A DNA stretch of 64,000 nucleotides, from positions 1,024,001 through 1,088,000 of the forward strand of contig OX638340.1 of the NCBI GenBank assembly GCA_951812955.1, written 5' to 3'. Positions within the stretch are counted from its first letter, which is position 1, and each line of letters begins with the position of its first letter. The notes under the pieces are model-generated. The model made no database searches. It was given only the letters and a program-made list of their open reading frames with translations, and was not told the DNA's origin. Below, piece by piece: positions 12,886-54,173 of the stretch. The position numbers and the translations under genes are program-made. This stretch comes from an uncultured Gemmatimonadota bacterium. Its GTDB lineage: Bacteria > JAAXHH01.

Positions 12886-13668
12886 CTAGAACCGATAGGC
12901 CGTCTCCAGCGGTTGCCCCTCCTCCAAGGCGCGTCGTGAAAAGTTCTCTTTTTCGCGCAACTCCCCGATCACGCGAATGACGTCCTCCAACGACTCACTG
13001 GGAAAGGCCATCACGCCGTTCACGTCCGCGGCGATAACGTCACCGGGGGCGACTTCGATTCCTCCGCAGACTATCGGCACGTTGGCGGCGACGGGGCGGA
13101 TCACCGAACCGGGACCATAGAGGCAGATTCCCCCCGCGTAAACAGGCAGGCCGATTTCCTCCATGCCCTCGATATCCCGGCAGCCGCCATCGGTCACCAG
13201 GCCCGCCATCCCCTTCTGACGACAGGCCAGCACGATCACGTCTCCGAACATGCTGAGCACCTCGCTGGTACCACTCGCCGTCACCCAGATCGATCCGGGC
13301 TCCGCTTCGTCCACCGGGCGAAAGACGAATGAACGAATGTCGTCCCGCGTGGTCGGGGTGTCGCTCTCCTCGTACTTCGTCGTCACGGCCGGCCCGGCGA
13401 TCGTACCCCTGGCGGGGATCATTGGTCGCACGCTTCGGGACATGGCCAGCCGCTCCCGGTCATGCCCCAGCCGGATCAACGCGTCCATGATCAGCGGCGT
13501 TGGTGCGTCTCTGAGCGCGCGGAAGGGATCACTGCTGGTACCGGTTTCCTGGTTCGTCTGAACCGCATGCGTTCTGGCGGGACTAGAGGCAAGGCTCGCG
13601 GCGGCCGTCGCGGCCATTCCGGATTTCAGGAACCCCCTGCGGGACAGGCTTCGATTGAATATCGTCAT
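12886..13668 (-). CDS. RraA family protein (RraA/HMG-aldolase-like) with twin-arginine signal peptide
   Basis: The RraA-like core reads ...VLACRQKGMAGLVTDGGCRDIEGMEEIGLPVYAGG.... The N-terminus MTIFNRSLSRRGFLKSGMAATAAASLASSPARTHA is a canonical Tat signal. The start is taken at the internal ATG (13668); the long ORF extends to 13731. Confidence 0.7.
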   Translation of the reverse strand: MTIFNRSLSRRGFLKSGMAATAAASLASSPARTHAVQTNQETGTSSDPFRALRDAPTPLIMDALIRLGHDRERLAMSRSVRPMIPARGTIAGPAVTTKYEESDTPTTRDDIRSFVFRPVDEAEPGSIWVTASGTSEVLSMFGDVIVLACRQKGMAGLVTDGGCRDIEGMEEIGLPVYAGGICLYGPGSVIRPVAANVPIVCGGIEVAPGDVIAADVNGVMAFPSESLEDVIRVIGELREKENFSRRALEEGQPLETAYRF

Positions 13669-13816
13669 ATTGTGCTCCTGGAATGTGTGGATGAGGGTCG
13701 AAAACCAGCATCGTTCCTGCGCATACATCAACTCGGTTCCACGTTGCGATTAAACTGTTGATACCGTGGAAGACCACGTCTATTATAATTGAACCTGCCG
13801 TCGGACCGGGCAGTTT

Positions 13817-13865
13817 ACCTGAAGTCTTTCGATCCTGGCAGATAACCTGAAGTCTTTCGATCCTG
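13817..13865. repeat. perfect 21-bp direct repeat ACCTGAAGTCTTTCGATCCTG x2, 28-bp period
   Basis: Copies at 13817-13837 and 13845-13865 are identical. They lie in the divergent intergenic region between the RraA-like and LarA-like genes. Confidence 0.9.
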
Positions 13866-13906
13866 TCCCCTTGTGCATCAAGTGGCCATCCCGAAAGTGG
13901 TTCGCG

Positions 13907-15463: not shown

Positions 15464-15485
15464 TTAAGCGCGCTAATGACAAGGA

Positions 15486-16511
15486 TTAAGAGAGCGCGCC
15501 ACGGAGTTTCCCCACCAGGTCACGGGCCGGCGCAAAGGGCAGCGTAACGACCGCCCGGCGCAACGCGCTTTCGTAAATCCCCAGGATCACGCTGAAGTCG
15601 GACAGCGCCGAATCGATGTTCAACGGGTGGACGGCCGAGTCGTCTTCGATCCAGTCGATCATGGCTTCGGTCATCGCCGCCTGGCCGCGGATGTCTTCCT
15701 CGGCGTAGACATGTTCCCCGCTTTCGTATTTGTTGTCTATCCTGGATTCCCAACCGTGCATGGTCCAATGCACGTACCCCTTGTCCCCGTACACCGCAAT
15801 ACGCTTGTGGACGTTTACCGCTCCGGCGGCGATAACGCGAGGCGCGACGGCGCCGCAGCGCAGCAGGGCGCTCACGCCGTTGTCGTAGTTGATGACTCCG
15901 GTGCAATGGTCCGGCGCGTAGTGGTGCCTGGAGGTTTCGGCCAGTCCTTCCGGGCCCGATACCTGTCCGAAGACATCGACCGGCGTCGCGCCGGTGTTGA
16001 AAGCACCTACGGCCTGCAGCGCGTGCGTCCCCTGGTAGGCCAGGTTCATCCCCGCACTGGCCTCAATGAAGCGTAGATTCCCGATTGCGCCTTCCCGCAC
16101 CTTCCGCTGAAACAGGCTCCGTCGAGGGTGAAAGTGCAACTGGTGATTGACGGCTATTTTGACCCTGGCAGACCGCGCGAAGGCCTGCATCGCCAGGAAA
16201 TCCTCTCCCTGGATGGCAACGGGTTTCTCGACCAGCACGGCCGGTATCCCCGCCGACTCCGCCGCTTCGAAGATCTCCATGCGTACCGAGGGCGGCGTGT
16301 TAACATGGACCAGGTCCGGTTTCTCCCGCTCGAACATCTCGCGGTAGTCTGTGTACCTCGCGGACACATCGAACGCCGATCCGAAGGCATCGAGCTTATC
16401 CCGCTGACGGCTCGACACGGCGGCCAGGCTTCCGCGGCTTACGTGCCGGTAGGCCTCGGCCAGTCCACGAGCCCTCCCGCCGCTGACCCCGATGATTGCG
16501 CTTTTCATCAT
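15486..16511 (-). CDS. Gfo/Idh/MocA family oxidoreductase
   Basis: Contains the N-terminal Rossmann MMKSAIIGVSGG... and the EKP motif (VLVEKPVA). The start is taken at the ATG at 16511, because the longer ORF to 16676 would overlap the upstream gene. Confidence 0.75.
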   Translation of the reverse strand: MMKSAIIGVSGGRARGLAEAYRHVSRGSLAAVSSRQRDKLDAFGSAFDVSARYTDYREMFEREKPDLVHVNTPPSVRMEIFEAAESAGIPAVLVEKPVAIQGEDFLAMQAFARSARVKIAVNHQLHFHPRRSLFQRKVREGAIGNLRFIEASAGMNLAYQGTHALQAVGAFNTGATPVDVFGQVSGPEGLAETSRHHYAPDHCTGVINYDNGVSALLRCGAVAPRVIAAGAVNVHKRIAVYGDKGYVHWTMHGWESRIDNKYESGEHVYAEEDIRGQAAMTEAMIDWIEDDSAVHPLNIDSALSDFSVILGIYESALRRAVVTLPFAPARDLVGKLRGALS

Positions 16512-16545
16512 ATTGATATTTGCCTCGCCTGTTCGAAATGCTAGG

Positions 16546-16625
16546 CAATGCGAGACCGGTCCAGGTAATGCGGGACCCTTCCAGGTAATGCGAGACCTAC
16601 CTCGGTAATGCGGGACCCGTACCGT
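16546..16625. repeat. 20-bp tandem repeat x4 (consensus YAATGCGRGACCnnnCCnGG)
   Basis: Units start at 16546, 16566, 16586 and 16606. AATGCG(A/G)GACC is conserved in all four. The array lies between two minus-strand genes. Confidence 0.85.
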
Positions 16626-16638
16626 ACCCGGCCGGCCG

Positions 16639-17658
16639 TCAGGTCCATGGCCGGATGACGACTTTCCCACATTCACCGGATACCTGCGTCTCCCATGCGC
16701 GCTGTATTTCGTCTATGGAAAATACGTGCGTAATGAGTCGATCCACTTTCTTCCTGTTTCGATCAATGATGCCCATGATATCGTGGGCACCCTTCATGTT
16801 GTAATGCCAGGAACCTTTCAGATCGATGCCCTTGCGAATCATGTCGTCGCTTACGACCAGCCGGGTGTCCGCACCGCTCTCACCGACGAAGGCGAGGCTC
16901 CCTCTCCTGCGAAGTGCATCGATGCAGAATCTGTGCGCGGTCGGAGAACCTGAACAGTCCACGGCCTTGTCGACGCCGGTGCCGCCGGTCAGCTCGCGTA
17001 TGCGTTCCGCCGCGTGTTCGTCCCGTGGACAGATGACGTGCGCGGCACCCAATTCCCTTGCCTTCGCCTTCCGGTAAGGATGGGATTCCACGGCGATGAC
17101 CTCGGCGCCCATGTGACTTGCGCAGATCACGCCGCCCAGGCCTACCGGTCCCATTCCGGTTATAAGGACGGTTTCACCGCCCCTCAACCGAAGACGGTCC
17201 AGTGCGCCGTAGGTCGGTCCCAGTCCGCAGCAGGCCATGGCCCCATGCTCATAGGACATGCCTTCGGGGATTGGCGTTAAAAGCCAGTCCTGTTTGAGCA
17301 TGTACTGGGCCAGGGTCGCCTTGCCTTCGTCGCTTCCCGTGAACGCTGCGAAATCCACGACGTTTTCACAATGTATGTAGTCTCCGGAACGACACAGCGC
17401 GCATCCGCCGCACGGATACTGCGGCATGACCGCGACCCGGTCTCCTGCCCTGACAAGACCGGGCTGCGCGACTTCGACCACCTCGCCCGCCGCTTCGTGA
17501 CCGAGAAAATCCGCCCTGTGGCCGGCCGCGAAACCCTTGTACTCGGTGCAGAGCGGCGCCGCGTGTATCTTGATCGGAACCCAGTCTTCCTTTGGTTTCG
17601 GTTCGTCGGCCTCGACGGTGCCTCCGTGGTTCTTTCCGAGGATTACGGCTCTCTTCAT
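16639..17658 (-). CDS. zinc-dependent medium-chain alcohol/polyol dehydrogenase (threonine/sorbitol dehydrogenase-like)
   Basis: GHEAAGEVVEV is the catalytic Zn motif and CGGCALCRSGDYIHC the structural Zn motif, with a GxGxxG-type fold (ITGMGPVGLG). The ATG at 17658 is preceded by GGGGGA. Confidence 0.8.
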   Translation of the reverse strand: MKRAVILGKNHGGTVEADEPKPKEDWVPIKIHAAPLCTEYKGFAAGHRADFLGHEAAGEVVEVAQPGLVRAGDRVAVMPQYPCGGCALCRSGDYIHCENVVDFAAFTGSDEGKATLAQYMLKQDWLLTPIPEGMSYEHGAMACCGLGPTYGALDRLRLRGGETVLITGMGPVGLGGVICASHMGAEVIAVESHPYRKAKARELGAAHVICPRDEHAAERIRELTGGTGVDKAVDCSGSPTAHRFCIDALRRRGSLAFVGESGADTRLVVSDDMIRKGIDLKGSWHYNMKGAHDIMGIIDRNRKKVDRLITHVFSIDEIQRAWETQVSGECGKVVIRPWT

Positions 17659-17794
17659 CGGTAAACGTCCCCCCACGCGAAATCGGGTTACAAATCGTGG
17701 TCTGCGGCCGAACAGGTTGCGTGATGCGTAAGCCGCAATATAACGTCCGTCCGATCTTGACGCAACATACCGAAGACTGTTACTTGGTAAGTCA

Positions 17795-19042
17795 ATGAGC
17801 AGACTTTATCACAACGAATCCGGCCGTGTCATACCGGCGCTGTGCGAGGAACTTACGAGGTTCCGGCGTGCCCGCGTCATCCTGAACCTGCCGGCCACCG
17901 GTTCGGACGCGAACCTGTACGTGCTTGCCCGGCCCCATCGGACCGGCGACAACCCGCTGAACCTGTCCATCAACGGGATCCGTCAGGCTGCAATCCACGC
18001 TGGTGCGGATCTGCATTACAGATGGTATGAAGGGGTCGTAAAAGCCGGCGACCTGCGCGAAGGAGAGAACGTGGTGGCGTTATGGGCCGAGGACAGTGCG
18101 ATGACGGGTTGGTCGCTCGCGCTGGAACCCGGGGGCGCCTCATCCAGCAGTTTCCTTTCCGACGATGGGGGTACGGTCTGGCGCTCCGACCGGATGGGAT
18201 ATCTGAACGCGGTGCAGGGCAACTACTGCGTACGCATTCGCCTGATGGAAGGCCAAGACGATCCGCCTCCGGATATGGTGTGGGAGTCCCCCATTCATCC
18301 TAGGACACGGTCGCTCCACGAGCTGCTCCCGCGCCGTGCCGTTAACGCCACGGATCGGCTCACCCAGGTACGGGAACTGTCTTCCTGGCTGGCTTCGAGC
18401 TGGGAACATTCCGGGTCCCGTCGCGCGACGGTTTACGCGCCGTGGGACGCGGAGACCATACTCGCCTGGGGCGGCAGCCAGCGCGGTCACAACGACGAGC
18501 GTCCCATCGCCATGTGCGTACATTACGCGGTGGCCTTCGTCAGTGCCTGCCAGTCACTCGGCATCCCGGCGCGCTGCGCAGCGCTGACGGGCACGCCCAA
18601 CGGATATGACGGTCATTTCGTGGCGGAAGTCTGGTTCGAGGAACACCGGAAATGGGTGATGGTCGACCCGAACTGCGACGCGATCCTGTTCCGTAACGGG
18701 CAACCGCTGTCCATCGAGGAGATTCAGGAACTGGGAGGCGGACTGGAGCCTTACGTGGCATGGGGTGTCGGTACGCGGTACCAGCGGACTTTCTCCCATA
18801 TAAAAGACTTCATTCGCAACAATCTGACTAAAGGGGCGTGTTTCCGGAACAGAAGCGTCTGGCCGAGGACCGACTTCCTGTCCCGTCCCGAGTATACGCC
18901 TCCGGGCCACGGATCCGTCTCCTACTGTGAGACCGACCTGGTCTGGACGGAATCGGACGTGGAATCAGGCTTCGGAATGTTCAGGTATTTCGCGCAAAAC
19001 GACTACTTTGCCGCGCCACCCGACAGGACCGCCTATGCCTGA
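17795..19042 (+). CDS. transglutaminase-like (papain-fold Cys-His-Asp) domain protein
   Basis: 415 aa. CVHYAVAFVSACQSLGIPAR (Cys), GHFVAEVWF (His) and WVMVDPN (Asp) lie in the order typical of the transglutaminase core. Confidence 0.65.
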   Translation: MSRLYHNESGRVIPALCEELTRFRRARVILNLPATGSDANLYVLARPHRTGDNPLNLSINGIRQAAIHAGADLHYRWYEGVVKAGDLREGENVVALWAEDSAMTGWSLALEPGGASSSSFLSDDGGTVWRSDRMGYLNAVQGNYCVRIRLMEGQDDPPPDMVWESPIHPRTRSLHELLPRRAVNATDRLTQVRELSSWLASSWEHSGSRRATVYAPWDAETILAWGGSQRGHNDERPIAMCVHYAVAFVSACQSLGIPARCAALTGTPNGYDGHFVAEVWFEEHRKWVMVDPNCDAILFRNGQPLSIEEIQELGGGLEPYVAWGVGTRYQRTFSHIKDFIRNNLTKGACFRNRSVWPRTDFLSRPEYTPPGHGSVSYCETDLVWTESDVESGFGMFRYFAQNDYFAAPPDRTAYA

Positions 19043-27465: not shown

Positions 27466-28845
27466 ATGGTTAATGGAACCATACCAAAACGTATAGCCAT
27501 TATCGGCGGTGGGATATCCGGGCTGGGCGCAGCGTGGGCGTTGAATCAACATCCAGACCGGTTCGATTTCCGTATTTACGAAGCCCGGGAGCAGGTGGGC
27601 GGAAACGCAATCACCGCCGACATGCCGCAGGATGACGGCGGTTCCATTCCCTTCGACATTTCCGTCACCGCACTGATCCCATCGGTCTATCACCACATCC
27701 TGTTGTTGATGCGGAAGTTCGGCATCGAACTGCTCGATACCCGGTTCAACTACAGCGTGAAATACCATGGGCAGGTATACGCCCACGATTTCGACTCCGC
27801 CATCAGAAGGCAGCTGCAACCGGAGATTGTCCGGTTTCAACGGCTCCTGAAGCGTCTTCACCGGCTCGGCTGGCTGACCCATTCCCGGTCGAGGCTCGTC
27901 AACGCGCTCAATCCCTTAAATTACGTCAGCATGGGGACCGTGCTCAACCTGGGCGGTTTTTCAGGGGACTTCAGGTTCAAGATCCTGAAGCCCATGTTCG
28001 TCAATTTCCTGATGGCGACGAACGTGTTCGATATGCCCGCGTCGCTTTTTGCGCGGTACCTGGAGTTCTTCGATATCGAATCTGCGACGCCCATGCAGAC
28101 GTGGGACCAGGGCACGCGTCGTATCTACGAGCACCTTTCAGCCGGTTTCCGGGACAGGATATACCTCGGCCGGCCCGTACGAAAAGTGTACCGACGGCCG
28201 AACTGTGTCGTGATCGAGGATCCGGACGGAGTAGAGGAGACGTTCGACGAGGTGATCTTCGCCTGCAACGCGAACCAGACGCTGATGCTGCTCGACCGGC
28301 CCACGTTTCTGGAGCGGTACATTCTGTCGTCGATCCGTTATGAAAGCGAACTCCACAACCACACGGTCGTGCATTCGGACGCCTCCGTCCTGCCGGAGAA
28401 CGAAGTGAAACCGCTGGAGACGCGGAGCAATCATATTGAACAGTACGGGGCCAGGCCGGACAACTATGAAATAACCTACATCATGCACAACCAGCAGCCA
28501 TGGGCCAACCGGTCCGACAAACCCTGCCTGGTGACCTATAACCCGGTCACGCCCATCGACGAACGGAAGATCGTCAAGAAGTGGTGGTTCCAGCACATCG
28601 TGCATGATGTGCGCCATGTCGCCTGGCTCATCCATCTGTTCCGTTTCATCCAGGGCAGACGGCGGACCTGGCACTGCGGTGCCCATACCCTGATGAACAG
28701 CCAGGAAACCTGCTTTGTAACGGGACTCGCCGCGGCCTCGCAGATCGGCGCTGAATATCCCTTCAAAGACCCCCTGGCCAGGCGCATGTTCAATTATTAC
28801 GGAAGAATTCTGCACGGCTGGCGTTTCCGGAAGGCGAGAGGTTGA
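27466..28845 (+). CDS. NAD(P)/FAD-binding oxidoreductase (amine-oxidase-like Rossmann flavoprotein)
   Basis: The dinucleotide fold reads RIAIIGGGISGLGAAWAL...YEAREQVGGN. 459 aa. The substrate is unknown. Confidence 0.7.
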   Translation: MVNGTIPKRIAIIGGGISGLGAAWALNQHPDRFDFRIYEAREQVGGNAITADMPQDDGGSIPFDISVTALIPSVYHHILLLMRKFGIELLDTRFNYSVKYHGQVYAHDFDSAIRRQLQPEIVRFQRLLKRLHRLGWLTHSRSRLVNALNPLNYVSMGTVLNLGGFSGDFRFKILKPMFVNFLMATNVFDMPASLFARYLEFFDIESATPMQTWDQGTRRIYEHLSAGFRDRIYLGRPVRKVYRRPNCVVIEDPDGVEETFDEVIFACNANQTLMLLDRPTFLERYILSSIRYESELHNHTVVHSDASVLPENEVKPLETRSNHIEQYGARPDNYEITYIMHNQQPWANRSDKPCLVTYNPVTPIDERKIVKKWWFQHIVHDVRHVAWLIHLFRFIQGRRRTWHCGAHTLMNSQETCFVTGLAAASQIGAEYPFKDPLARRMFNYYGRILHGWRFRKARG

Positions 28846-29090: not shown

Positions 29091-30167
29091 TTGCATACCT
29101 CCGAAACGATCGCAACCCCCATGGCCGACGCAGATACCGTACACCGTACCGGGCACGCTCCGGGTGGCCTACCCCCCTTCCCGGAAGGCTGGTACCTGGT
29201 AACCACGCGCGAAACCCTGTTGCGGGAAAAACTGATCGAGAAGATGTGGATGGGGGAGAACATCGTCGCATGGTGTGACGAGGAAGGCCGTATCTGCGTG
29301 GCCGACGCGGTTTGTCCGCACCTGGGTTCCGACCTGGGACCGCAGGTCGGCGGCAAGATTCACGGTGGCCGCCTGGTCTGTCCGTTCCACGGGTTCGAGT
29401 TCGATGCGACGGGTCAATGCGTCGCGACGCCCAACGCCCCGGCGCCGAAAGCCGCGAAACTGACCGTGTATGAAACCCGTGAGATCTCCGGCCTGGTCTT
29501 CGCGTGGTACGGAATCGACGGCCGTCCCGCGCACTGGCACCTGCCGGACGATCCTCCGACCGGTAACGAGTGGGGCGAACTGGGATTCAGAACCCTGCGT
29601 TTTCGCAGCCATCCACAGGAAACGGCGGAGAACTCCGTGGATATCGGACACCTGCGCTACGTACACGGCTATGACAATGTGGACCCGGTCGGCCCGGTGA
29701 CGGTGGACGGAGCCTACCTGAGGAGCTGTTTCAACTTCAAGCGCGTCCGCAGCATTATGGGCTTGAAGGACCTCACCTATGAAGTATCGGCCGTCGCCCA
29801 TATCCACGGTCTGGGATACTCCTATGTCGAAGTCCACGAAAAAACGATCGATATGCACTTGAGACTGTGGGTACTGCCCACGCCGATCGATGGCAGCCTG
29901 ATCGATCTCGTACTGGCGGGCCAATTGCAGGGAATCCGCAGACCCCGGCGTTTCATCTCGGGCCTGGGGTTCCTCCCCATGGCGTTGCGCAACCGCTTGA
30001 TGAAGCAAATCATGCTTTCACAGCAAAAACGGGACGTACTGCAGGACGTGGTGATCTGGGAACGAAAGCAGTTTCGCACGCCGCCCCGGCTGTGCAAGGC
30101 CGATGGGCCCATTGGCCTTTACCGGCGCTATTGCCTGCAGTTCTATCCTGAACAACCGAAAGCCTGA
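29091..30167 (+). CDS. Rieske [2Fe-2S] non-haem iron oxygenase (KshA / cholesterol-7-desaturase / SdmA-like class)
   Basis: The Rieske motif is CPHLGSDLG...CPFHGFEF (CxH...CxxH), followed by a catalytic-domain-sized C-terminus. The TTG at 29091 is preceded by GGAAGGA. An alternative ATG lies at 29121. Confidence 0.8.
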   Translation: MHTSETIATPMADADTVHRTGHAPGGLPPFPEGWYLVTTRETLLREKLIEKMWMGENIVAWCDEEGRICVADAVCPHLGSDLGPQVGGKIHGGRLVCPFHGFEFDATGQCVATPNAPAPKAAKLTVYETREISGLVFAWYGIDGRPAHWHLPDDPPTGNEWGELGFRTLRFRSHPQETAENSVDIGHLRYVHGYDNVDPVGPVTVDGAYLRSCFNFKRVRSIMGLKDLTYEVSAVAHIHGLGYSYVEVHEKTIDMHLRLWVLPTPIDGSLIDLVLAGQLQGIRRPRRFISGLGFLPMALRNRLMKQIMLSQQKRDVLQDVVIWERKQFRTPPRLCKADGPIGLYRRYCLQFYPEQPKA

Positions 30168-30255: not shown

Positions 30256-31050
30256 CTATCCGCCGTCCTCCAGCTCAGCCAGAGTCTCCAGCACCCCCTG
30301 CTGGATGAACTCCTCGTAGGCGTCCCGTGTCGGTAGTTCGGCCGCCTTCGACAGCATTTTCGTGGCCCGCGCCCGGCCGTCCTCGCGATCAAGATATGGA
30401 AGCCTGAGCGCATATTCAAACAGCACGACCTTCGAGTCCGGAGCTAGCTCCAGAGCCCGCTCGTAATGGATGACGGCGTTTTTCCGATTCCCCTTGTACA
30501 AGAACCGTGCAACGCGCCCGGCACGTGCGATGTCGGCGTGCCAGCCCCCTAAGGCCATATGCGCCTCTGCGAAGTCGGGGGAGATGGTGAGCGCGGTCTC
30601 GAGCAAATCGCGTGCCCTGCCCGCCAGACCTCGGCGAAATGCAGTTAGTTTACCGATACTCTGTGCATATCGGCCAACAGCGTGCGCGGATTGGAAATAT
30701 GCTTCGGAATTGGTCGAATCGATGCGCACTGCTTCTTCCCCGTACTCTATCGCGCGTTCCAAAATACCGTTCCGGTCCTCCTCAGTCGCCACATGGTGGC
30801 CGTACACCGCGAGCGATTGCGCCGCAAGGGCGTAGCCTTCGGATGTACCGACGGCTGACGCGAGATCCGCCGCCTCGAGAAAACGGCCTTCCTCGAAATC
30901 GGTCCTTGCTTCATCGATCGACTGCGCGTTCGCGCCAGCCGGGTCGGCCAGGCTGGCCGCAATAATCACGAATCCCGCAACTGCCACGAAACGGACAACT
31001 GCCGCGAATCCCGCAACGACTGCGAAACGGTAAAACTGGGTAAGGGTCAT
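30256..31050 (-). CDS. secreted/periplasmic TPR (Sel1/TPR-like) repeat protein
   Basis: 264 aa. A hydrophobic N-terminus ends ...PAGANA|Q, followed by helical repeat segments (...AEAHMALGGWHADIA..., ...AVIHYERALELAPDS...). Confidence 0.6.
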   Translation of the reverse strand: MTLTQFYRFAVVAGFAAVVRFVAVAGFVIIAASLADPAGANAQSIDEARTDFEEGRFLEAADLASAVGTSEGYALAAQSLAVYGHHVATEEDRNGILERAIEYGEEAVRIDSTNSEAYFQSAHAVGRYAQSIGKLTAFRRGLAGRARDLLETALTISPDFAEAHMALGGWHADIARAGRVARFLYKGNRKNAVIHYERALELAPDSKVVLFEYALRLPYLDREDGRARATKMLSKAAELPTRDAYEEFIQQGVLETLAELEDGG

Positions 31051-31208: not shown

Positions 31209-32252
31209 CTAAAGAGGTTTACGAGCCAGGAAACAGTACAGCGGCGTGAAGATACCCGACCTGCCGCCCTCGACATAAGCGTCAGCAGTTCGATCCAGGA
31301 GTCGGACCACTTCCGAATACCCCTTCGGAATCAGACTTAGCGCTTCGGCCATCTTCGATCCTGCGATCACGGCCTTGCGACCCCAAGGGAGCCTGTTCAG
31401 TGCGTTCCCCAAAGTCCCATGCCGACTCTCCATTGGCCGATACCAAGGCGTGGAGGGTTCATTCCGGACGTCTCGGTCCATCCCTTCGATGACGTGGAAT
31501 CCCGCCGCTTCAAGCCCGTGATTCACTTCCCTGAACGTCGCAATGTCGTTCAGCGCAATGCCGCGCATGAGGTCCTGCTCAATGGCCCGGTGCCGGTTGT
31601 CTTTCGGATCGAATTTCTCGGTCAGACACATTTCCTGACCCCAAAACAGGGCTCCTGGTTTGAGTACGCGGAAGATCTCCGCGAAAGCGCGTTCCTTGTC
31701 TGGCGCGTGGCACGTTGACTCGATGGCATAGGCTCGGTCAAACGTCTCGTCCTCAATGCCGCCCATATCCATGAAGCTACACGTCTCGTAATCGACCATG
31801 TGGCCGAGTCCCGCTTCAGCGTTCAACCGCTTTGCCTTATCCAATTGGAGTTCGTTGATGTTGATTCCGACAACCCGGACGCCGGCCTCCCGGACGACGC
31901 GACGCATCGGACCGCCGATTCCACAACCAACGTCGGCCACCGTCATACCCTGCTCCAACTCCAGCTTCGAGATCATCAACCGCTGATGCCGGATTATGGA
32001 TTCCTCCAGGCTTTCATCGGGCTTTAGTGGCGCGAAGTGGAGGGATTCGCTCCAACCCCACACCATTAACCCGCTGCAAAGATCATAGTACTCTTTCACT
32101 GTTTCTGTGTGGTCGTACTCATACGCGCCATCGGCCCCCGGGACCGCCCGGGCTGCCCGGGCGGTCCAGCCTTCAAGGCGCTGCGCGCGACTCTTGACGT
32201 CCGATCCCCGGCTCGCATCTTTCAGTTCTCTGGATAGTTTGCCCATCGCCAT
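31209..32252 (-). CDS. sterol C-24 methyltransferase (ERG6/SMT family, with Sterol_MT_C-type C-terminus)
   Basis: The protein is collinear with my recollection of yeast ERG6. YYDLCSGLMVWGWSESLHF corresponds to YYNVVTDFYEYGWGSSFHF, DVGCGIGGP to DVGCGVGGP, AIESTCHAP to AIEATCHAP, FRVLKPG to YKVLKPG, and C-terminal IFTPLYCFLARKP to LFTPMMLFVARKP. Confidence 0.85.
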   Translation of the reverse strand: MAMGKLSRELKDASRGSDVKSRAQRLEGWTARAARAVPGADGAYEYDHTETVKEYYDLCSGLMVWGWSESLHFAPLKPDESLEESIIRHQRLMISKLELEQGMTVADVGCGIGGPMRRVVREAGVRVVGININELQLDKAKRLNAEAGLGHMVDYETCSFMDMGGIEDETFDRAYAIESTCHAPDKERAFAEIFRVLKPGALFWGQEMCLTEKFDPKDNRHRAIEQDLMRGIALNDIATFREVNHGLEAAGFHVIEGMDRDVRNEPSTPWYRPMESRHGTLGNALNRLPWGRKAVIAGSKMAEALSLIPKGYSEVVRLLDRTADAYVEGGRSGIFTPLYCFLARKPL

Positions 32253-32288: not shown

Positions 32289-34316
32289 TCAGACTTGCAG
32301 TTCGTGTCTTTGCTCGGAGATGACGAACTGCAGCTTCTTGGTCGGTTTCATAGACGGAAACGGATTGAACCGCAGCTTATAGTTTGCAGGCGACACATCG
32401 ATCTTGAAGTAGTGCGCCAGCATCAGCACGTTGACAGCCAATTGCAGTTCCATCCAACGGGTGCCGAGACACATGTGCGTGCCCAGCCCGTACGGAGCGT
32501 ACCCGGGGCTGCGATGCTCATTGCGCGACGGCAAGTAGCGGTCGATGTCGAAGGAGTGCGGGTCGGGGAAGATGTCACTCATGTAATGCGAGGCGGTCGG
32601 CGCGATGTGGATCCGTTCCCTCATGGGCAGTTCGTATCCCTCAAACACACACGTATTCATCACGTGTCGAACAGACATGGGAACGATCGGGTACATGCGC
32701 ATACACTCCATGAGGAAGCGGTGCGTGACGTCAATCGCGGATGGAGTGAAGGCCTCGATGTCCGGAACGCCGTTCCCGAATACGTCATCGGCTTCATTTC
32801 GGATTTTCTCGTAGAGTGCAGGCTGCGACGCCATGGCATAGACTACCAGACTGAACGTGTCACCAAGGTACACGCTGGCGATCAACGCCGCAGAAAAGGC
32901 AAACCGCAGGTTGGCCTCCGGGAGGAATTGCGGGTCGCTCGCGTGCAGGCTAAGGTAATCGTCCACCAGGTCCCGCGGTTTTCCGGCCCGTTGGGCGGGG
33001 GTGTGGCCCTCCTCGACTCTTTTCATCAGTGTATCAAGGGATTTCGCCCGGCGTTTCATGCCCGGGGTGTTCAGCGTGAACTCGGGCAGCATCCTGGCGA
33101 TATGCACGCTGAGCGCCCGTTCCTTGTACTGCATCAGATCGTCCATCAGGTCCTGCGTGTCGATGCCGATAAACAGGGGCGAGAGTTGGGCGTTTATCAT
33201 CTGCCGGCACATGGACGTAGCAGAATAGGAATCGCCGACATTCAAGCTTGCCATGTATTTCCAGGCATGATGGTAGAGCTTGTCCAGCTGCCCCGCAAGT
33301 CTCCCGCGTGAATACGCTGGAGACAAAGACTTGCGCAGGCGGAAATGGTCGGCGCCGTCCAGGGAAGGCAAGAGGCCGGAAGCGCCGTAGACTTTCTCGA
33401 AGTCTCTGAAATAGTCCTTGGCACTCAGGTACATGCGCCCGTGCTTATGCACCCAGCGGTTTGCCTCGGGTCCGACCAGGAAGACCATGGGCCGGGTGAA
33501 AGGAGGGCGGATCTCAAACACCGGACCGTAGTCCTGCGCAAGGTCCGCAAAGAGCGCGTGGAGGTTGCCGTCTCGAACATGCGGTTGCATCATCAGCTTG
33601 CGTAACGGTACCCTCGGAATCTTCTTTGTAAAACCGGGACGTCGAAGCGTCGGGCCGGCGAGTTTGTGGGAGACTGCTTCGGCGATGGACCGGCCGATCA
33701 CGTCCATCTTGCAGATCAACTCGATGCGTTGCTCCGTCTCGTCATCGAGTTGGAACATGAATCGAAACACATCGCACGTATTGACGAGGCAAATTACGAT
33801 AACGTCTCTCGGGTCGGGGATCTCGTTCATGAAGATCGCCCGGCTGATCCGCGTTCTGATGAACTGACTTGCAGTACTCGAATCGACATCGTTGTTCAAT
33901 TCCATCTTCCAGTCAGTACGGGCCAGCGTCCAGAACTCGCCATCGTGGTGTTCCAGGATCTTCATTTCTACCAGGCGATCCAGAACCGAATCTATAATGG
34001 TCTCCGCTCGGGGGGCCAGCCGTTCGATCCAGTACTGTGTATTGTGCTGATTTGGCTCATTTACGATTTCTTCCAGAATGAAATCGATGGTGGAATTGCC
34101 CGTTGGTGTCTGGTCGAGGACGAACAGAGACCCCGGGTCCGTGTCGATGCGAGATCTGATTGAAAGCTCCGCAAGTGCGGCACCGATTACGGCGCAGTTC
34201 AAATCCCAGCCAGGCACCTGGTGGAAGTAGCCAGTCTCCTCATTGAGGAGCATCAGGATGAGTTCCTGGGTCAAAGTAAGTGATTGGGGCTTCACGTCCT
34301 TTGCAGTATCAGCCAT
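32289..34316 (-). CDS. GPP34 (GOLPH3/Vps74-like) domain fused to cytochrome P450
   Basis: The N-terminal ~200 aa follow the GPP34 pattern (LTQELILMLLNEETGYF...WDLNCAVIGAALAELSIRSRI...PDPRDVIVICL). The C-terminal part has P450 ExxR (ECMRMYP) and haem loop YGLGTHMCLG. The start is taken at the ATG at 34316, which overlaps the RND stop (TAATG); the ORF extends to 34406. Confidence 0.8.
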   Translation of the reverse strand: MADTAKDVKPQSLTLTQELILMLLNEETGYFHQVPGWDLNCAVIGAALAELSIRSRIDTDPGSLFVLDQTPTGNSTIDFILEEIVNEPNQHNTQYWIERLAPRAETIIDSVLDRLVEMKILEHHDGEFWTLARTDWKMELNNDVDSSTASQFIRTRISRAIFMNEIPDPRDVIVICLVNTCDVFRFMFQLDDETEQRIELICKMDVIGRSIAEAVSHKLAGPTLRRPGFTKKIPRVPLRKLMMQPHVRDGNLHALFADLAQDYGPVFEIRPPFTRPMVFLVGPEANRWVHKHGRMYLSAKDYFRDFEKVYGASGLLPSLDGADHFRLRKSLSPAYSRGRLAGQLDKLYHHAWKYMASLNVGDSYSATSMCRQMINAQLSPLFIGIDTQDLMDDLMQYKERALSVHIARMLPEFTLNTPGMKRRAKSLDTLMKRVEEGHTPAQRAGKPRDLVDDYLSLHASDPQFLPEANLRFAFSAALIASVYLGDTFSLVVYAMASQPALYEKIRNEADDVFGNGVPDIEAFTPSAIDVTHRFLMECMRMYPIVPMSVRHVMNTCVFEGYELPMRERIHIAPTASHYMSDIFPDPHSFDIDRYLPSRNEHRSPGYAPYGLGTHMCLGTRWMELQLAVNVLMLAHYFKIDVSPANYKLRFNPFPSMKPTKKLQFVISEQRHELQV

Positions 34317-37300
34317 TAGTGGCCTCCCTTCATCAGACGCAGATGAATGGTAGAAAGAGCGGGAACGACCATCATGAGTATGGCCGTGACGACGAGGATA
34401 CCGCAACCAAGCGATGCGGCAAAGGGAACCAGGAACTGAGCATGAATAGCGCGTTCCAGAATCAAGGGGGTGAAGCCGAGAAACGTAGTCAGAGAAGTAA
34501 GCATAATCGGACGAAAACGTCCCTTTGCGCCCTCTATGATCGCAGTTCGCGCCGGAGCGCCTTCCCTGAGTTTCTGATCGATGAAAACGATCATGACCAG
34601 TGAATCGTTCACAACCACGCCGCTCAGGCCGAATATACCCATGAAGGAGATTGCGCTCAGGGCTACTCCAAGGGCCCAGTGACCAAGGATCACTCCGATG
34701 AACCCGAACGGGATCACCGCCATGATGATGAACGGTTTGGTATAGGATCGTAAGGGGATGGCGAGCAGCACGAAGATCATGATCAGAGCGATCGCAAATC
34801 CGCGATACAGTGCATCCAGGGAATCGAGTTGTTGTTGTTGCTCACCTCCGAACGTGTAGGTCAGGTCCGGGTACACGGCGGTCAATTCCGCGAGGATTGA
34901 ATCCGCCAGGATGCTATTGGCCTGGTCACCGGAGATCACCGCGGCATCCACGTCCGCAGTGACCGTGACGACACGCTGACCATCCTTCCGCCGAATGGCC
35001 GGCGGCGACACGCCCGTGTTCAGCGCGGCCACACTGACGATCGGGACCTCGGCACCGGCCGGCGTACGGATCAGGTACCTTTCGATATCGGTGATGGAAC
35101 TTCGTTCATCGGCGGGCAGGCGCACGTAGACCCGAACCTCTTCACGGCCGCGCTGCACCCGGACGGCATCCGCACCGAAAAACGCGGCGCGCGTCTGTCC
35201 GGCCAACGCTTCCAGCGTGAGACCCAAAGTCCGCGCTTCCGGCCGGAGTTCAAGCTGTATTTCCGGGATACCCGGGGTGTGATCCGAACGGACATCGTAG
35301 ACGCCTGTCACTCCACGGAGACCATCGACCACCGAGTCCGCAATCCGGGCGAGTCGCACCGGATCCGGATGCGACAGCACGGCCTCGACCGGGTTGCCCA
35401 GGTCGAAGACCTCTCCGCTGAAGGTGACACCGCGCACGTAGGGCAGCACACCCACTTCCTCTCGCCATGCCTGCACAACCTCTCCGGTAGTGATCTGCCT
35501 TTGCTCCGCGCTCAGGAGTTTGAACTCGATGGTTGCAATGTTGGCCTGAGGATTAAGGGTGGGGGCTGGATTAAGCCCACCCTCGAGCCTCGAGCCCTGT
35601 CCGACGGTCACCATTACGCCGGTCAGCAGTGGTGGCGCATCCTCGGGGCGGCCGCGCGAAAGCCGATCGACGACCCGGTAACCTGCGGCCTCCAGTTCCT
35701 GTGCCACCTCGTATGTCCTTGGAGCGGTCGTCCCGTCGGGCATCTCCAGGATGACCGTCGCAAAATCCCCCTCCACGTCAGCAGCCAACGTGGTAGGTAC
35801 GATCCCCGCCGGTACCAGCGAGATACTAAGTACGAGTATTCCAACGGCCCCCCCCAGCGTGACCGCGGGCTGATCCGTCGCGAACCGTAACGCTCGGTCC
35901 AGGGGACCCTGCACGAACCGGTTCAGCGACTCGTTCACACGTCCCTGGATCCGCGCGAAGAACCGGTCGAAAGCACTTGTCGGCGTCCATTCCGGACCGT
36001 GCAAACGGGACAGGTGGTTGGGTAGTACCAGCAGTGATTCGATCAGGGAAACAAACAGTATGGCGATAAGGATGATCGGCAGTGCCCGCCATACGTCACC
36101 GACGCCTCCGGGTATGAACAGCAGCGGGACGAAAGCCACCACCGAAGTAAGGACCGCGAAGGTCAACGGCACTTTTATCCGTCGTACTCCGCGTATCGCA
36201 GCCACGACACCGGGCGTTCCCCGACTGCGTTCATATTGAATGTGCTCGGCTACGACGATGGCGTCATCGACGACAATCCCTATGGCGAGGACGAAAGAGA
36301 ACAGGCTGATGGTGTTAATAGCTACGTCGAGTACCATCATGACGGCCAATGTGCCTATACCCGAAACGGCGAGGCCGACGGCGACCCACAATGCAAGCCG
36401 GATTTCCAGAAACAGGCTGAGTGCGATCAACACCAGCAACAGACCCAGGATGCCATTCTTGACGAGAATATCGGCACGTTCCTCATAGGCTTGGGATTCG
36501 TCATTCCACATGGTGATGTGCACACCGTTCGGCAGAGCCGGGATCACCTCGTTTGCCATATGTTCCCGGACAGTCGTGGCGACGTCCATCACTTGTTCGC
36601 CGTTGGCTCGGTACACCTCGACGAATACAGCGGGATGGTTCTGATGCCGAACAATCAGGTCGGATTCCTGAAAACCATCGCGAACCCTGGCGATATCGCC
36701 AAGGCGCAAGGCAGTGCCGTCACTTCTGCTAAGCAGGATGATCTCTTCGAAATCCTGCTGGTCGTAGTTCTGGCCGAGGGTACGAACCCGCACCTGGGAT
36801 TCCCGGGTATCGATACTGCCGGCAGAAAGGTTCAGGGAACTGCGACGAATGGTATTGGCGACATCGGCGAGTGTCAGTCCAAGGGCTCTCAGCCGATGAA
36901 GCGGCACCTCGATGGAGATCTCGTATTTCCGAACACCACTGACCTCGACCTGGGACACGGACGGAAGCGCCGTGAGTCCATCCTCGATCTGATATGCCGT
37001 TTCCTTCAGCGAGCGTTCGGACACGTCGCCGTAGACGATGAACCGTATCATGCTCATACGGTTGTCCATCTCACGGAAACTGGGACGATCGGCACCGGCC
37101 GGGAAAGACTGGATGCGATTGACCGCGGACTCGATATCGTTGAGCGCCTGGACCATGTCCGTACCGAAATCCATTTGAATCCGCACGGATGCTATACCCG
37201 GGGCCGCTACAGACTTGACCGCCTTCACGTCATCCAACCCGCTGACCTGGTCCTCGATCTTGACGACGATCGACTCCTCGACCTCCTCCGGCGTGGCGCC

Positions 37301-37489
37301 GGGATAGGCCATCGACACTTCGATATGGTAGAAGGGAGTAGTGGGCCACGCTTCCCGATCGATGCCGGACAGCGAAATCAGCCCTGCGGCGACGATGGCC
37401 ATCATCAACAGATTGGCGGCCACGCTGTTGCCCGTCATGTAAGCGATCGGACCGGAAGGTTCGTTATGATTTCCGTTGTCCATACTCAT
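34316..37489 (-). CDS. RND efflux transporter permease (AcrB/HAE-type, 12-TM)
   Basis: 1057 aa with AcrB-like architecture and sequence style (...AYPGATPEEVE...VKSVAAPG...). A 4-nt overlap links it with the MFP gene. Confidence 0.9.
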   Translation of the reverse strand: MSMDNGNHNEPSGPIAYMTGNSVAANLLMMAIVAAGLISLSGIDREAWPTTPFYHIEVSMAYPGATPEEVEESIVVKIEDQVSGLDDVKAVKSVAAPGIASVRIQMDFGTDMVQALNDIESAVNRIQSFPAGADRPSFREMDNRMSMIRFIVYGDVSERSLKETAYQIEDGLTALPSVSQVEVSGVRKYEISIEVPLHRLRALGLTLADVANTIRRSSLNLSAGSIDTRESQVRVRTLGQNYDQQDFEEIILLSRSDGTALRLGDIARVRDGFQESDLIVRHQNHPAVFVEVYRANGEQVMDVATTVREHMANEVIPALPNGVHITMWNDESQAYEERADILVKNGILGLLLVLIALSLFLEIRLALWVAVGLAVSGIGTLAVMMVLDVAINTISLFSFVLAIGIVVDDAIVVAEHIQYERSRGTPGVVAAIRGVRRIKVPLTFAVLTSVVAFVPLLFIPGGVGDVWRALPIILIAILFVSLIESLLVLPNHLSRLHGPEWTPTSAFDRFFARIQGRVNESLNRFVQGPLDRALRFATDQPAVTLGGAVGILVLSISLVPAGIVPTTLAADVEGDFATVILEMPDGTTAPRTYEVAQELEAAGYRVVDRLSRGRPEDAPPLLTGVMVTVGQGSRLEGGLNPAPTLNPQANIATIEFKLLSAEQRQITTGEVVQAWREEVGVLPYVRGVTFSGEVFDLGNPVEAVLSHPDPVRLARIADSVVDGLRGVTGVYDVRSDHTPGIPEIQLELRPEARTLGLTLEALAGQTRAAFFGADAVRVQRGREEVRVYVRLPADERSSITDIERYLIRTPAGAEVPIVSVAALNTGVSPPAIRRKDGQRVVTVTADVDAAVISGDQANSILADSILAELTAVYPDLTYTFGGEQQQQLDSLDALYRGFAIALIMIFVLLAIPLRSYTKPFIIMAVIPFGFIGVILGHWALGVALSAISFMGIFGLSGVVVNDSLVMIVFIDQKLREGAPARTAIIEGAKGRFRPIMLTSLTTFLGFTPLILERAIHAQFLVPFAASLGCGILVVTAILMMVVPALSTIHLRLMKGGH

Positions 37490-54103: not shown

Positions 54104-54173
54104 ATAGTTTTACGATAGTACTCAAACCCCAAAATGCAGTTGGCTTCCATATAGCACCGCATTCTAATTGATC

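Follow-up and report, generated by a model that had tools for sequence, protein, structure and literature searches.

GOLPH3 and Vps74 (PDB 3KN1, 2ZIH), the eukaryotic proteins of the GPP34 family, are free-standing peripheral membrane adaptors. Both bind phosphatidylinositol-4-phosphate (PI4P), and in GOLPH3 the pocket is made up of W81, R90, R171 and R174 (Wood et al., 2009, PMC2806290). In bacteria, a fusion of the same domain (PF05719) to a cytochrome P450 (PF00067), about 675 aa long, has already been published under the name GPP34_L, with 656 examples and as a hallmark of sponge symbionts (Ferreira et al., 2025, Microbiome 13:4, PMC11706023). The main text of that paper also reports rarer GPP34-Rieske and GPP34-ABC-ATPase fusions, as well as P450 genes beside stand-alone GPP34, an assortment consistent with GPP34 being an accessory part of enzymes that associate with membranes.

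Two other groups of systems invite comparison. De novo sterol clusters of sponge symbionts, as far as the text of Brown et al. (2023, PMC10070321) describes them, combine an oxidosqualene cyclase (OSC), squalene monooxygenase, CYP51, ERG24 and SdmA/SdmB with a gene of the sterol methyltransferase (SMT) family and a Rieske oxygenase. BstA of Methylococcus and HpnN are inner-membrane transporters of the RND superfamily that are linked to polycyclic-triterpenoid enzymes.

Here we describe a GPP34_L gene and its surroundings in a window of 64,000 nucleotides from an uncultured Gemmatimonadota bacterium (contig OX638340.1, positions 1,024,001 to 1,088,000; Table 1). The protein shows no structural difference from GPP34_L as presented in the main text of Ferreira et al. 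(2025) and its relatives show the same host-associated distribution; what differs is the published interpretation on the one hand and the gene context and pocket residues on the other. An exact-sequence look-up returned no database record for the fusion protein of the window.

The fusion gene and its neighbours

The gene encodes both domains in one open reading frame, and the fusion of GPP34 to a P450 recognized in the original prediction is real. Its ATG (34316-34314) and the TAA that ends the upstream RND gene overlap (TAATG, 34318-34314); a Shine-Dalgarno-like site precedes the ATG. A longer TTG-initiated frame (705 aa, from 34406) was rejected on the strength of this site, the stop/start overlap and the length of the homologues, about 675 aa: more than 120 homologous clusters of 672-677 aa can be aligned from residue 1. 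Nor does the start lie downstream, a possibility raised earlier that would leave the N-terminal region untranslated.

Table 1. Features of the fusion locus; positions are those of the window.
Feature	Position	Strand	Evidence
FAD-dependent oxidoreductase, amine-oxidase superfamily	27466..28845	+	Pfam Amino_oxidase and NAD_binding_8
KshA-like Rieske non-haem-iron oxygenase, probable ATG at 29121	29091..30167	+	Pfam Rieske and KshA_C
TPR protein, hydrophobic N-terminus, last gene on its strand	30256..31050	-	Pfam TPR families
Sterol-methyltransferase-family gene, 36 nt 3' of the fusion	31209..32252	-	Sterol_MT_C E=2.6e-15, SAM-methyltransferase domains
GPP34-cytochrome P450 fusion gene, 675 aa, GPP34_L family	32289..34316	-	ORF, Pfam GPP34 and p450
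P450 domain, residues 247-675	32292..33578	-	Pfam p450 PF00067 E=5.5e-37, motifs
Basic inter-domain linker, residues 217-246 (…LAGPTLRRPGFTKKIPRVPLRKLMMQP…)	33579..33668	-	Composition, pLDDT, conservation
GPP34 (GOLPH3/Vps74-like) domain, residues 13-216	33669..34280	-	Pfam, family profile, AF2 model
Shine-Dalgarno-like GGAGG, 6 nt 5' of the fusion ATG	34323..34327	-	Direct sequence reading
AcrB-type RND permease, stop overlapping the fusion start	34316..37489	-	Pfam ACR_tran E=1.4e-159
Membrane-fusion (HlyD-type) protein of the pump	37486..38703	-	Pfam HlyD_3; syntenic in 26 loci
Outer-membrane efflux protein (TolC-like)	38710..40230	-	Pfam OEP E=3.3e-37; syntenic in 18 loci

Low G+C content had been pointed out in this gene, and the counts given for two of its lines (25/60 and 30/60) are exact; the gene as a whole has a GC of 0.563 against a window mean of 0.598. 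The dip is not a meaningful signal, however: GC3 is 0.72, within the range of the neighbouring genes (0.67-0.83), and the lower GC therefore comes from amino-acid composition rather than a compositional anomaly. A foreign origin argued from low GC was rejected for the same reason.

The neighbours named earlier, an RND pump and a sterol methyltransferase, are both in place, upstream and downstream respectively. The genes for the outer-membrane efflux protein (OEP), membrane-fusion protein (MFP), RND permease, fusion and SMT form a tightly packed block and are probably co-transcribed. The TPR protein beyond them is conserved in 10 loci of the window's lineage; in one Opitutae locus (L127), too, a TPR protein adjoins the RND gene. 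A Pfam scan of 44 window proteins, leaving aside a few short or overlapping ORFs, found no OSC, squalene monooxygenase, CYP51, C-14 reductase, SdmA or SdmB among them.

Distribution and divergence of the family

The original prediction presented the fusion as unusual; the architecture is in fact abundant as well as published. Orthologues occur in 77 species-level MAGs of 8 phyla and in 49 metagenome contigs, and about 45 further clusters of fused proteins (clustered at 50% identity) are divergent, with 22-55% identity. The nearest relatives of the window protein, at 93-94% identity, lie in loci L001, L002 and L078; the closest (94%) belong to the Gemmatimonadetes MAG APA_bin_41, an isolate name that seems to follow the sponge-MAG naming of Ferreira et al. 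(2025), and contig MKWU01002289. All MAGs in which the scans found the fusion are host-associated, and the metagenomes whose origin is documented all come from sponges; MAGs with names of the coral type (Plut_ isolates, Ca. Palauibacter poriticola) account for some of the relatives.

The GPP34 and P450 parts are both intact, are conserved together and evolve at similar rates: relative to the window protein, GPP34 has a median identity of 65.6% and the P450 one of 68.6%, and the two values are correlated (r=0.77, n=114).

A GPP34 domain without most of the PI4P pocket

Assignment of the N-terminal domain is secure. PF05719 matches residues 15-215, aligning positions 1-198 of its 201 with a score of 100.5 bits (cut-off 29.1; E=1.7e-28), and all 54 of the diverse fused proteins scanned match the same profile, so that the GPP34 homology read earlier from a sequence pattern is borne out at full length. 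A search of PDB with the single domain sequence reached only E=0.24; a family profile is needed, and that of the fusion GPP34 matches GOLPH3 (3kn1) at E=5e-6 and Vps74 at E=7e-4. The domain shares with these proteins the Pfam family and the helical fold with β-hairpins. An AF2 run with 30 sequences of at least 70% identity gave an unusable model (pLDDT 49.8); addition of fused representatives with 22-55% identity raised the pLDDT of the whole fusion to 87.3 (pTM 0.84). GPP34 is modelled with pLDDT of about 76-92 over most of its length, low in the loop 135-147, and the linker falls below 50 at residues 219-226.

The differences from GOLPH3 are concentrated where the eukaryotic protein binds its ligand. 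Three of the four PI4P-pocket residues are changed in the window's clade (R90 to V/I/A, R171 to E/D and R174 to I/V). As to the fourth, W37 aligns to W81 by HMMER but not by MAFFT, and a Trp near this position is kept in the window's clade, not in the wider fused superfamily. The 10-residue loop before α6 is absent; in the model, a single continuous helix (93-117) replaces this loop and the N-terminus of α6, which form the pocket in GOLPH3. In addition, the domain is acidic overall (pI 4.5, net charge -18) and, unlike GOLPH3 and Vps74, is fused to an enzyme. Docking of the phosphoinositide type, suggested by the eukaryotic homologues, is therefore not upheld.

These features bear directly on the one functional proposal made so far, in which sponge-symbiont GPP34 proteins are secreted effectors that bind PI4P on host phagosomes and block their maturation, with the P450 part in a supportive role (Ferreira et al., 2025). 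The proposal draws on the PI4P binding of GOLPH3 and Vps74, on the enrichment of GPP34 genes in sponge symbionts and their absence from free-living relatives, and on expression of GPP34_L genes in A. aerophoba, the last two as given in the main text of that paper (PMC11706023); the restriction of the fusion to host-associated sources described above agrees with it. It rests on analogy, however, and pocket residues and secretion lie outside the tests that the main text describes. The loss of R90, R171 and R174 and the continuous helix in place of the pocket argue against it. So do the lack of a signal peptide (neither a signal peptide nor a transmembrane segment is predicted for the fusion), the cytoplasmic electron supply that a haem P450 requires, the overlap of the fusion start with the RND stop and the linkage to membrane-lipid enzymes in 59-60 of 63 loci. 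We consider a secreted effector highly improbable.

A membrane-recruitment or substrate-presentation role, also put forward in the original prediction, fares differently once the PI4P-type mechanism, with its replaced pocket residues, is set aside. The anatomy is compatible with such a role, because GPP34 occupies exactly the position of the membrane anchor of eukaryote-type P450s, with a basic linker containing proline behind it. This linker has seven K/R and no D/E (pI 12), and its I233 and P234 are invariant across the family.

A probably separate P450 family

The P450 domain carries a Cys-ligand loop of the FxxGxxxCxG type, ExxR and a PERF-like motif. The two motifs noted earlier, ECMR and YGLGTHMCLG, were located at E537-C-M-R540 and at Y609-GLGTHMC616LG, where C616 (codon 32469-32471) is the haem ligand. 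The I-helix reads Y-L-G-D-T (G485-D486-T487) in the window protein, as against (A/G)Gx(D/E)T in the standard motif, whereas the wider fused superfamily has the canonical A-G-x-D-T.

By both sequence and fold, the closest solved P450s are sterol and terpenoid enzymes: CYP725A, CYP51, CYP120, CYP46A1 and CYP90B1. The fusion shares with E-class P450s (CYP51, CYP46A1, CYP90B1, CYP725A, CYP120A1) the ExxR, PERF-like and Cys-loop motifs and the acid-alcohol pair of the I-helix, and these are its best matches, but with only 16-20% identity; it would thus form a separate CYP family. The earlier doubt about a CYP51 activity was well placed: identity to solved CYP51s is likewise 16-20%, the I-helix has no AGQHTS-type signature, and phmmer E-values to CYP51 (about 1e-16 to 1e-11) are no better than those to CYP725A, CYP120 and CYP46A1, so that CYP51 identity was rejected. 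Our best guess for the reaction is hydroxylation or desaturation of the side chain.

Like membrane-anchored P450s, the fusion has a proline/basic hinge ahead of its catalytic domain. E-class enzymes begin with an N-terminal transmembrane anchor; here a soluble domain of 200 aa stands in its place. A ferredoxin or other small Cys-rich conserved ORF was looked for near the fusion in 126 loci, and only antisense shadow ORFs were found; no linked reductase partner turned up either, which counts against the role proposed below.

A recurrent cassette around the fusion

Synteny was counted in 63 genome loci with full 10-kb flanks. The result, new in this analysis, is that the fusion almost always lies inside a cassette with a Rieske oxygenase, a lipid pump and often an SMT. 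A transporter of the RND superfamily is near the fusion in 60 of the 63 loci, either AcrB-type, which adjoins the fusion in 26, or MMPL/HpnN-like with a sterol-sensing domain; a KshA-like Rieske oxygenase is present in 52, an SMT within 10 kb in 40 and the FAD oxidoreductase, which is highly conserved, in 25. The composition varies: 23 of the 63 loci lack the SMT and 38 lack the FAD enzyme. The same pattern recurs in the 49 metagenome loci and in an Opitutae MAG. The main text of Ferreira et al. (2025, PMC11706023) mentions neither methyltransferase nor RND neighbours. The sterol/lipid context suspected from a single window is therefore real and far more general. The cassette is transferable; it recurs in symbionts of sponges, and of some corals, that belong to at least 8 phyla, probably through horizontal spread.

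In loci that lack the AcrB-type pump, its place is taken by an MMPL/HAE3/HpnN/BstA-like transporter that contains the Pfam sterol-sensing domain (E=1.2e-15). One such contig, LXNJ01000389 (locus L107), holds the fusion, FAD enzyme, MMPL transporter and Rieske gene within 10 kb and has an additional lipid-carrier lipoprotein (LppX_LprAFG). Its SMT was picked for in-vitro testing, according to the part of Brown et al. (2023, PMC10070321) that deals with this contig.

The linkage of Rieske oxygenase, lipid pump and SMT points to tailoring of a lipid, probably a sterol, rather than to a secreted protein that manipulates the host.

Cassette partners and known sterol systems

With the de novo sterol clusters the cassette shares an SMT-family gene, a Rieske oxygenase and an origin in the same sponge metagenomes, but, set against the clusters as Brown et al. 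(2023) describe them, the window has none of OSC, squalene monooxygenase, CYP51, ERG24 and SdmA/SdmB, its Rieske enzyme is KshA-like and Region I of its SMT is divergent. No NCBIfam equivalog was found for the fusion, the Rieske and FAD enzymes or the transporters, all matches being far below threshold.

In the SMT of the window, Region II (DVGCGIGGP) and Region III (IESTCHAP) are present, while Region I reads MVWGWSESLHF. Region I of the form Y-E-[YF]-G-W-G-x-x-F-H-F is common to all SMTs with demonstrated activity, on desmosterol or 24-methylenecholesterol (Brown and Welander, 2025, preprint). By motif comparison, the SMTs of the cassette clade, with M-V-[WFY]-G-W-[GSN]-E-S-L-H-F, do not match this consensus, and they may therefore act on something other than a conventional sterol. 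In Botryococcus, enzymes of the SMT family are known that act on non-sterol triterpenes.

The Rieske protein has the CPH…CPFH and DxxHxxxxH motifs, and its nearest solved structures are KshA enzymes, 3-ketosteroid 9α-hydroxylases (E=1e-22). Its identification as the C-4 demethylase SdmA was rejected, the score being 31.8 bits against an equivalog cut-off of 600. The FAD enzyme, 74-96% identical across phyla, is closest among solved structures to LkcE (E=6e-26) and to the fatty-acid isomerase of P. acnes (2b9w). As with BstA and HpnN, the cassette joins an RND-superfamily inner-membrane transporter to enzymes of the polycyclic-triterpenoid type. Its MMPL-type transporters match the HpnN and BstA models and carry the sterol-sensing domain, but fall far under the equivalog cut-offs (63.9 bits against 1400 for BstA); the transporter of the window, an AcrB-type tripartite pump, is unlike either.

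The KshA relationship raises the question of steroid catabolism, in which host sterols would be imported through the RND/MMPL transporter and pass to the P450, the KshA-like hydroxylase and an FAD dehydrogenase. The P450 would then oxidize the side chain in a CYP125/CYP142-like role, the transporters resemble sterol and hopanoid carriers, and markers of steroid degradation are enriched in the same sponge metagenomes, including a sponge-only KshA cluster that was apparently transferred horizontally and is suspected of a novel specificity (Holert et al., 2018, PMC5790920). However, catabolism has no use for a SAM-dependent SMT, which is present in 40 of 63 loci and lies directly 3' of the fusion in the window; the tripartite AcrB-MFP-OEP layout is an exporter's; and the FAD enzyme, a member of the amine-oxidase/CrtI superfamily, is not KstD-type. 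The other genes of the 9,10-seco pathway, some 20 or more in number and including KshB, KstD, HsaA-D and the side-chain β-oxidation set, were found neither in the window nor among the recurrent neighbour families, where only an occasional acyl-CoA dehydrogenase or SDR appeared. A catabolic front end is thus distinctly unlikely.

The substrate might instead not be a sterol. A hopanoid, a squalene- or carotenoid-type lipid, a sponge terpenoid or another toxic metabolite could be handled by a module for detoxification and efflux or for remodelling of envelope lipids, in which the SMT-family enzyme would methylate an isoprenoid olefin. The classical role of tripartite RND pumps is efflux, the best scores of the MMPL-type partner are to HAE3/HpnN (hopanoid) models, and Region I of the SMT is systematically non-canonical; furthermore, the FAD enzyme resembles CrtI/HpnE/LkcE-type enzymes and a fatty-acid isomerase, and the neighbours of the P450 include the terpenoid and fatty-acid enzymes CYP725A, CYP170A1, CYP184A1 and CYP120A1. 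Against this stand three independent homologies of a steroid flavour (Sterol_MT_C, KshA_C and the sterol-sensing domain) and the confinement to symbionts of animal hosts, which fits a host-supplied substrate such as a sterol. We regard a non-sterol substrate as unlikely.

Proposed role of the fusion

The reading that we prefer, at even confidence, is that GPP34_L is a cytoplasmic P450 docked to the membrane or to a transporter, within a horizontally spread cassette for tailoring and export of sterol-like lipids. The cassette would oxidize a sterol-like membrane lipid and, where an SMT is present, alkylate it. This lipid would most likely be host-derived, because no genes of sterol synthesis are linked. 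The oxidized or alkylated product may then be passed to the transporter for movement across the envelope. GPP34 would stand in for the N-terminal membrane anchor of eukaryote-type P450s and keep the enzyme near its hydrophobic substrate, either at the cytoplasmic membrane or attached to the co-encoded transporter; docking would probably not involve the eukaryotic PI4P pocket. The charge of GPP34 speaks against lipid tailoring in this form, since a net -18 is unexpected for an electrostatic anchor on anionic bacterial membranes.

In a more specific and very unlikely version, the cassette is a toolkit that symbionts share by horizontal transfer and use to remodel host sterols and export the products, with GPP34 docking the P450 in an enzyme-transporter assembly. 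For example, an unsaturation or hydroxyl might be introduced into the side chain, which would then be alkylated by the non-canonical SMT and exported.

Significance

GPP34_L is among the most widespread symbiosis-specific gene families of sponge microbiomes, and a secreted PI4P effector has been its sole functional proposal. The cassette linkage, the efflux-pump block and the mostly absent PI4P pocket provide a testable alternative, that the symbionts tailor and traffic sterol-like lipids. If this is true, a eukaryote-like membrane-adaptor fold has been reused in bacteria to position a P450 at a membrane or transporter, and sterol tailoring by symbionts would bear on the question of who makes the unusual sterols of sponges and on the interpretation of Neoproterozoic sterane biomarkers. 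Should the toolkit version hold, bacteria would have a share in making the unconventional sponge sterols with alkylated side chains, on which the 'sponge biomarker' record of 24-isopropylcholestane and 26-methylstigmastane rests.

The GPP34-P450 gene and its start

The fusion gene is translated as a single two-domain P450. Residues 15-215 match Pfam GPP34 from position 1 to 198 of the 201-position profile (E=1.7e-28; score 100.5 bits, cut-off 29.1), and the cytochrome P450 domain (E=5.5e-37) carries the ExxR motif as E537-C-M-R540, the haem-thiolate loop YGLGTHMC616LG, the PERF-type motif FDIDRY and a D486-T487 pair in the I-helix; named relatives of this domain are CYP184A1, CYP120A1, human CYP51 and CYP170A1. 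The original prediction of a GPP34 N-terminus, made from the family pattern, joined to a P450, recognised by the ECMR and YGLGTHMCLG motifs, agrees with both profiles. Neither a true start further downstream nor a lack of GPP34 profile support, both checked, was found: the GPP34 match is full-length, and the ATG at 34316-34314 is well supported by its sequence context. This ATG shares bases with the TAA that ends the upstream RND permease gene (TAATG), GGAGG lies 6 nt 5' of it, and homologues in more than 120 clusters measure 672-677 aa, with alignments beginning at residue 1. Consequently, a TTG-initiated 705-aa ORF is spurious.

Fourth in a block of closely spaced genes on one strand, the fusion is incorporated into it by the stop/start overlap and lies, as originally placed, between an RND pump and a sterol-methyltransferase-family (SMT) gene. 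No linked ferredoxin or reductase was found near it. The low GC remarked on earlier was counted exactly (25/60 and 30/60) but is not a signal: GC of the gene differs little from that of the window (0.563 vs 0.598) and its GC3 of 0.72 lies inside the range of neighbour genes, so the dip reflects amino-acid composition and carries no foreign-DNA signal.

Genes of the RND-pump block and the genes facing it
Gene	Position	Strand	Remark
Outer-membrane efflux protein	38710-40230	-	block gene 1
HlyD-type membrane-fusion protein	37486-38703	-	block gene 2
AcrB-type RND permease	34316-37489	-	block gene 3, directly upstream of fusion
GPP34-P450 fusion	32289-34316	-	ORF, 675 aa
Sterol-methyltransferase-family gene (SMT)	31209-32252	-	36-nt gap after fusion
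TPR protein, hydrophobic N-terminus	30256-31050	-	after SMT in block
KshA-like Rieske oxygenase	29091-30167	+	opposite strand, faces block
FAD amine-oxidase-superfamily enzyme	27466-28845	+	opposite strand, faces block

The TPR protein adjoins the RND pump both in the window lineage and in an Opitutae MAG locus (L127, 15345-16085), and may serve the transport module as an accessory component. Elsewhere, the window holds three PhyH (phytanoyl-CoA dioxygenase-family) genes in 64 kb (3570-4436, 4450-5283 and 62370-63218, +), two hydantoinase subunits, and several MR/MLE enolase-superfamily and GFO/IDH/MocA oxidoreductase genes; four consecutive ORFs at 51147-57900 (+; 702, 283, 900 and 333 aa) lack any Pfam match at E<=1e-5.

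A known and widespread architecture

The fusion was thought unusual, yet it is already known: exactly this architecture has been published as GPP34_L, which accounts for 656 of 663 long GPP34 proteins, occurs in many phyla but only in sponge symbionts, and is expressed in Aplysina aerophoba (Ferreira et al., 2025, Microbiome 13:4, PMC11706023). The database survey that had been suggested recovered it at 77 loci in species-representative genomes, all MAGs, at 49 metagenome loci, and in one Opitutae MAG; the phyla and lineages represented are Gemmatimonadota, Latescibacterota, Chloroflexota, Actinomycetota, Nitrospirota, Rhodothermales, Pseudomonadota and Verrucomicrobiota. When 1.84 billion 50%-identity representatives were searched exhaustively with HMMER, about 45 divergent full-length fused proteins were added, 22-55% identical to the query, which shows the fusion to be an old, diversified superfamily; in the same search the closest unfused P450s are just ~30-40% identical. 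Both Pfam domains are present in 54/54 fused proteins scanned, and the two domains have diverged in parallel, with median identities to the window protein of 65.6% (GPP34) and 68.6% (P450; r=0.77, n=114). Several loci (L037, L049, L052, L103, L104) carry two tandem paralogues, and one distant representative (P0137, 872 aa) has ~217 additional N-terminal residues.

An exact-sequence look-up returned no copy of the window protein in database records. By its 94% identity the gene is an orthologue of proteins from public sponge-symbiont MAGs, the nearest being those of Gemmatimonadetes MAG APA_bin_41 and contig MKWU01002289. Hosts of the MAG loci are suggested by isolate names, which are sponge-type for APA, IRC, RHO, SB06xx and COS and coral-type for a few (Plut_ isolates, 'Ca. 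Palauibacter poriticola'); among metagenome loci, sponge provenance is documented for the LXNJ01, LXNI01 and Ga0209021 series, from Petrosia, Sarcotragus and Aplysina, respectively (Brown et al., 2023, Supplementary Table 4, PMC10070321). Since MAGs with names that point to a coral (Porites) host (L004, L025, L074) carry the fusion together with its neighbours, the published exclusivity to sponge symbionts may be too narrow.

A conserved gene cassette

Searches by tblastn with window proteins on the 126 related loci reveal that the fusion is linked across phyla to RND/MMPL lipid transporters, a steroid-type Rieske oxygenase, an SMT-family enzyme and an FAD oxidoreductase. At the 63 genome loci whose 10-kb flanks are complete, an RND-superfamily transporter is present at 60, a Rieske homologue at 52, an SMT homologue at 40 and the FAD enzyme at 25, with at least one of these three enzymes at 59; metagenome loci and the Opitutae locus follow a like pattern, with varying gene orders. 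Chloroflexota and Actinomycetota loci have, instead of the AcrB-type pump, an MMPL/HAE3 transporter of 830 aa with a match to the sterol-sensing domain (Pfam, E=1.2e-15) and sub-threshold matches to the HpnN and BstA models. Across phyla the FAD enzyme is 74-96% and the fusion 55-94% identical, which indicates that the cassette has spread horizontally between host-associated bacteria. The FAD enzyme, whose range spans at least six phyla and exceeds the conservation of the fusion, looks like the most recently mobile or most strongly constrained part.

The cassette differs from de novo sterol clusters, which contain OSC, CYP51, ERG24 and SdmA/B (Brown et al., 2023, PMC10070321): none of these is among the window ORFs scanned. 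One SMT tested in vitro in that study sits on a Petrosia ficiformis contig (L107, LXNJ01000389.1); it is of the canonical type, and the FAD enzyme, fusion, MMPL transporter and Rieske gene lie within 10 kb. Genes at 5203-18004 of this contig encode an SDR, a START-like AHSA1 protein, the FAD enzyme, the fusion, the MMPL protein with its sterol-sensing domain, the Rieske protein, an MFS transporter and an LppX_LprAFG lipoprotein, placing a lipid-carrier lipoprotein and a START-like protein beside the cassette.

The Rieske protein has intact CxH…CxxH and DxxHxxxxH motifs, and its closest solved structures are 3-ketosteroid 9alpha-hydroxylases (E ~1e-22); an assignment as an equivalog of SdmA, the C-4 demethylase, is ruled out (31.8 bits vs a cut-off of 600). 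KshA-like clusters seen in sponges alone, apparently spread by horizontal transfer and suspected of a novel specificity, were described from the same metagenomes (Holert et al., 2018, PMC5790920). A steroid-catabolic front end would fit KshA, yet is quite unlikely: the SMT and the exporter architecture do not suit it and the remaining pathway is absent from the window and from the recurrent neighbour families.

The SMT has a Sterol_MT_C domain and Regions II and III, whereas Region I of cassette-type SMTs reads M-V-[WFY]-G-W-[GSN]-E-S-L-H-F in place of the canonical Y-E-[YF]-G-W-G-x-S-F-H-F; some Acidimicrobiia cassette SMTs also have Q for H90. GWGxxFHF is kept in every SMT active on desmosterol or 24-methylenecholesterol (Brown and Welander, 2025, preprint), so the cassette enzyme may act on another substrate, possibly one that the linked oxygenases produce. 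The closest solved relatives of the FAD enzyme are LkcE and a fatty-acid double-bond isomerase. A module that modifies and effluxes a non-sterol terpenoid or xenobiotic would accommodate the divergent SMT, the HpnN-like transporter and the CrtI/LkcE-like flavoenzyme, and is on balance unlikely.

A GPP34 domain with a mostly non-conserved PI4P pocket

Human GOLPH3 (3KN1, E=5e-6) and yeast Vps74 (E ~7e-4) are both hit by a profile built from 18 family N-domains, so the homology is real. The PI4P pocket of GOLPH3 comprises W81, R90, R171 and R174 (Wood et al., 2009, PMC2806290), residues that are mostly non-conserved in the aligned fusion sequences. R90 is V/I/A in the clade of the window protein, where the alignment is firmly anchored by G91 and the ELALRGR/ELSLRSR match; R171 is E/D; R174 is I/V, with Arg in about half of distant fused clades; W37, the sole possible W81 counterpart, is lost in the wider superfamily. 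The 10-residue loop preceding GOLPH3 alpha6 is missing, and the predicted model has one continuous helix (93-117) where the GOLPH3 pocket is formed by a loop and helix N-terminus. The phosphoinositide analogy of the original prediction thus finds no support in the sequence. Pocket residues and secretion lay outside the tests of Ferreira et al. (2025, PMC11706023), whose model of a secreted PI4P effector is highly improbable: the pocket, the gene context and the cofactor requirements speak against it, and the protein has no signal peptide.

The fusion protein has neither signal peptide nor transmembrane segment. Its GPP34 domain is acidic (pI 4.5, net -18) and is followed by a linker (residues 217-246) that contains proline and is strongly basic (pI 12), at the position of the post-anchor hinge in microsomal P450s. 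We infer that GPP34 may stand in for a membrane anchor and would keep the P450 at the cytoplasmic membrane or, by analogy with GOLPH3, which binds basic tails of membrane proteins, on the co-encoded transporter.

Implications for sponge symbiosis

Membrane or lipid recruitment in a sterol context, the original functional guess, is reasonable. The cassette would oxidise a sterol-like membrane lipid, alkylate it too where the SMT is present, and then hand it to the transporter; the lipid is probably host-derived, because no synthesis genes accompany the cassette and the family is restricted to symbionts of animals. The chances that this reading of lipid tailoring and transport is right as a whole are about even, and any specific role of GPP34 is less certain.

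The words methyltransferase and RND do not occur in the main text of Ferreira et al. (2025, PMC11706023), and a full-text literature search for the gene combination returned nothing further; as far as searched, neither the conservation of the cassette nor its lack in the PI4P pocket has been described before. That the cassette makes or remodels unusual sponge sterols is very unlikely, but if true would bear on the sterane biomarker debate. Together, the cassette and the non-conserved pocket provide, for a marker of symbiosis that had lacked an explanation, a hypothesis open to testing: that sponge symbionts may tailor sterol-like lipids.
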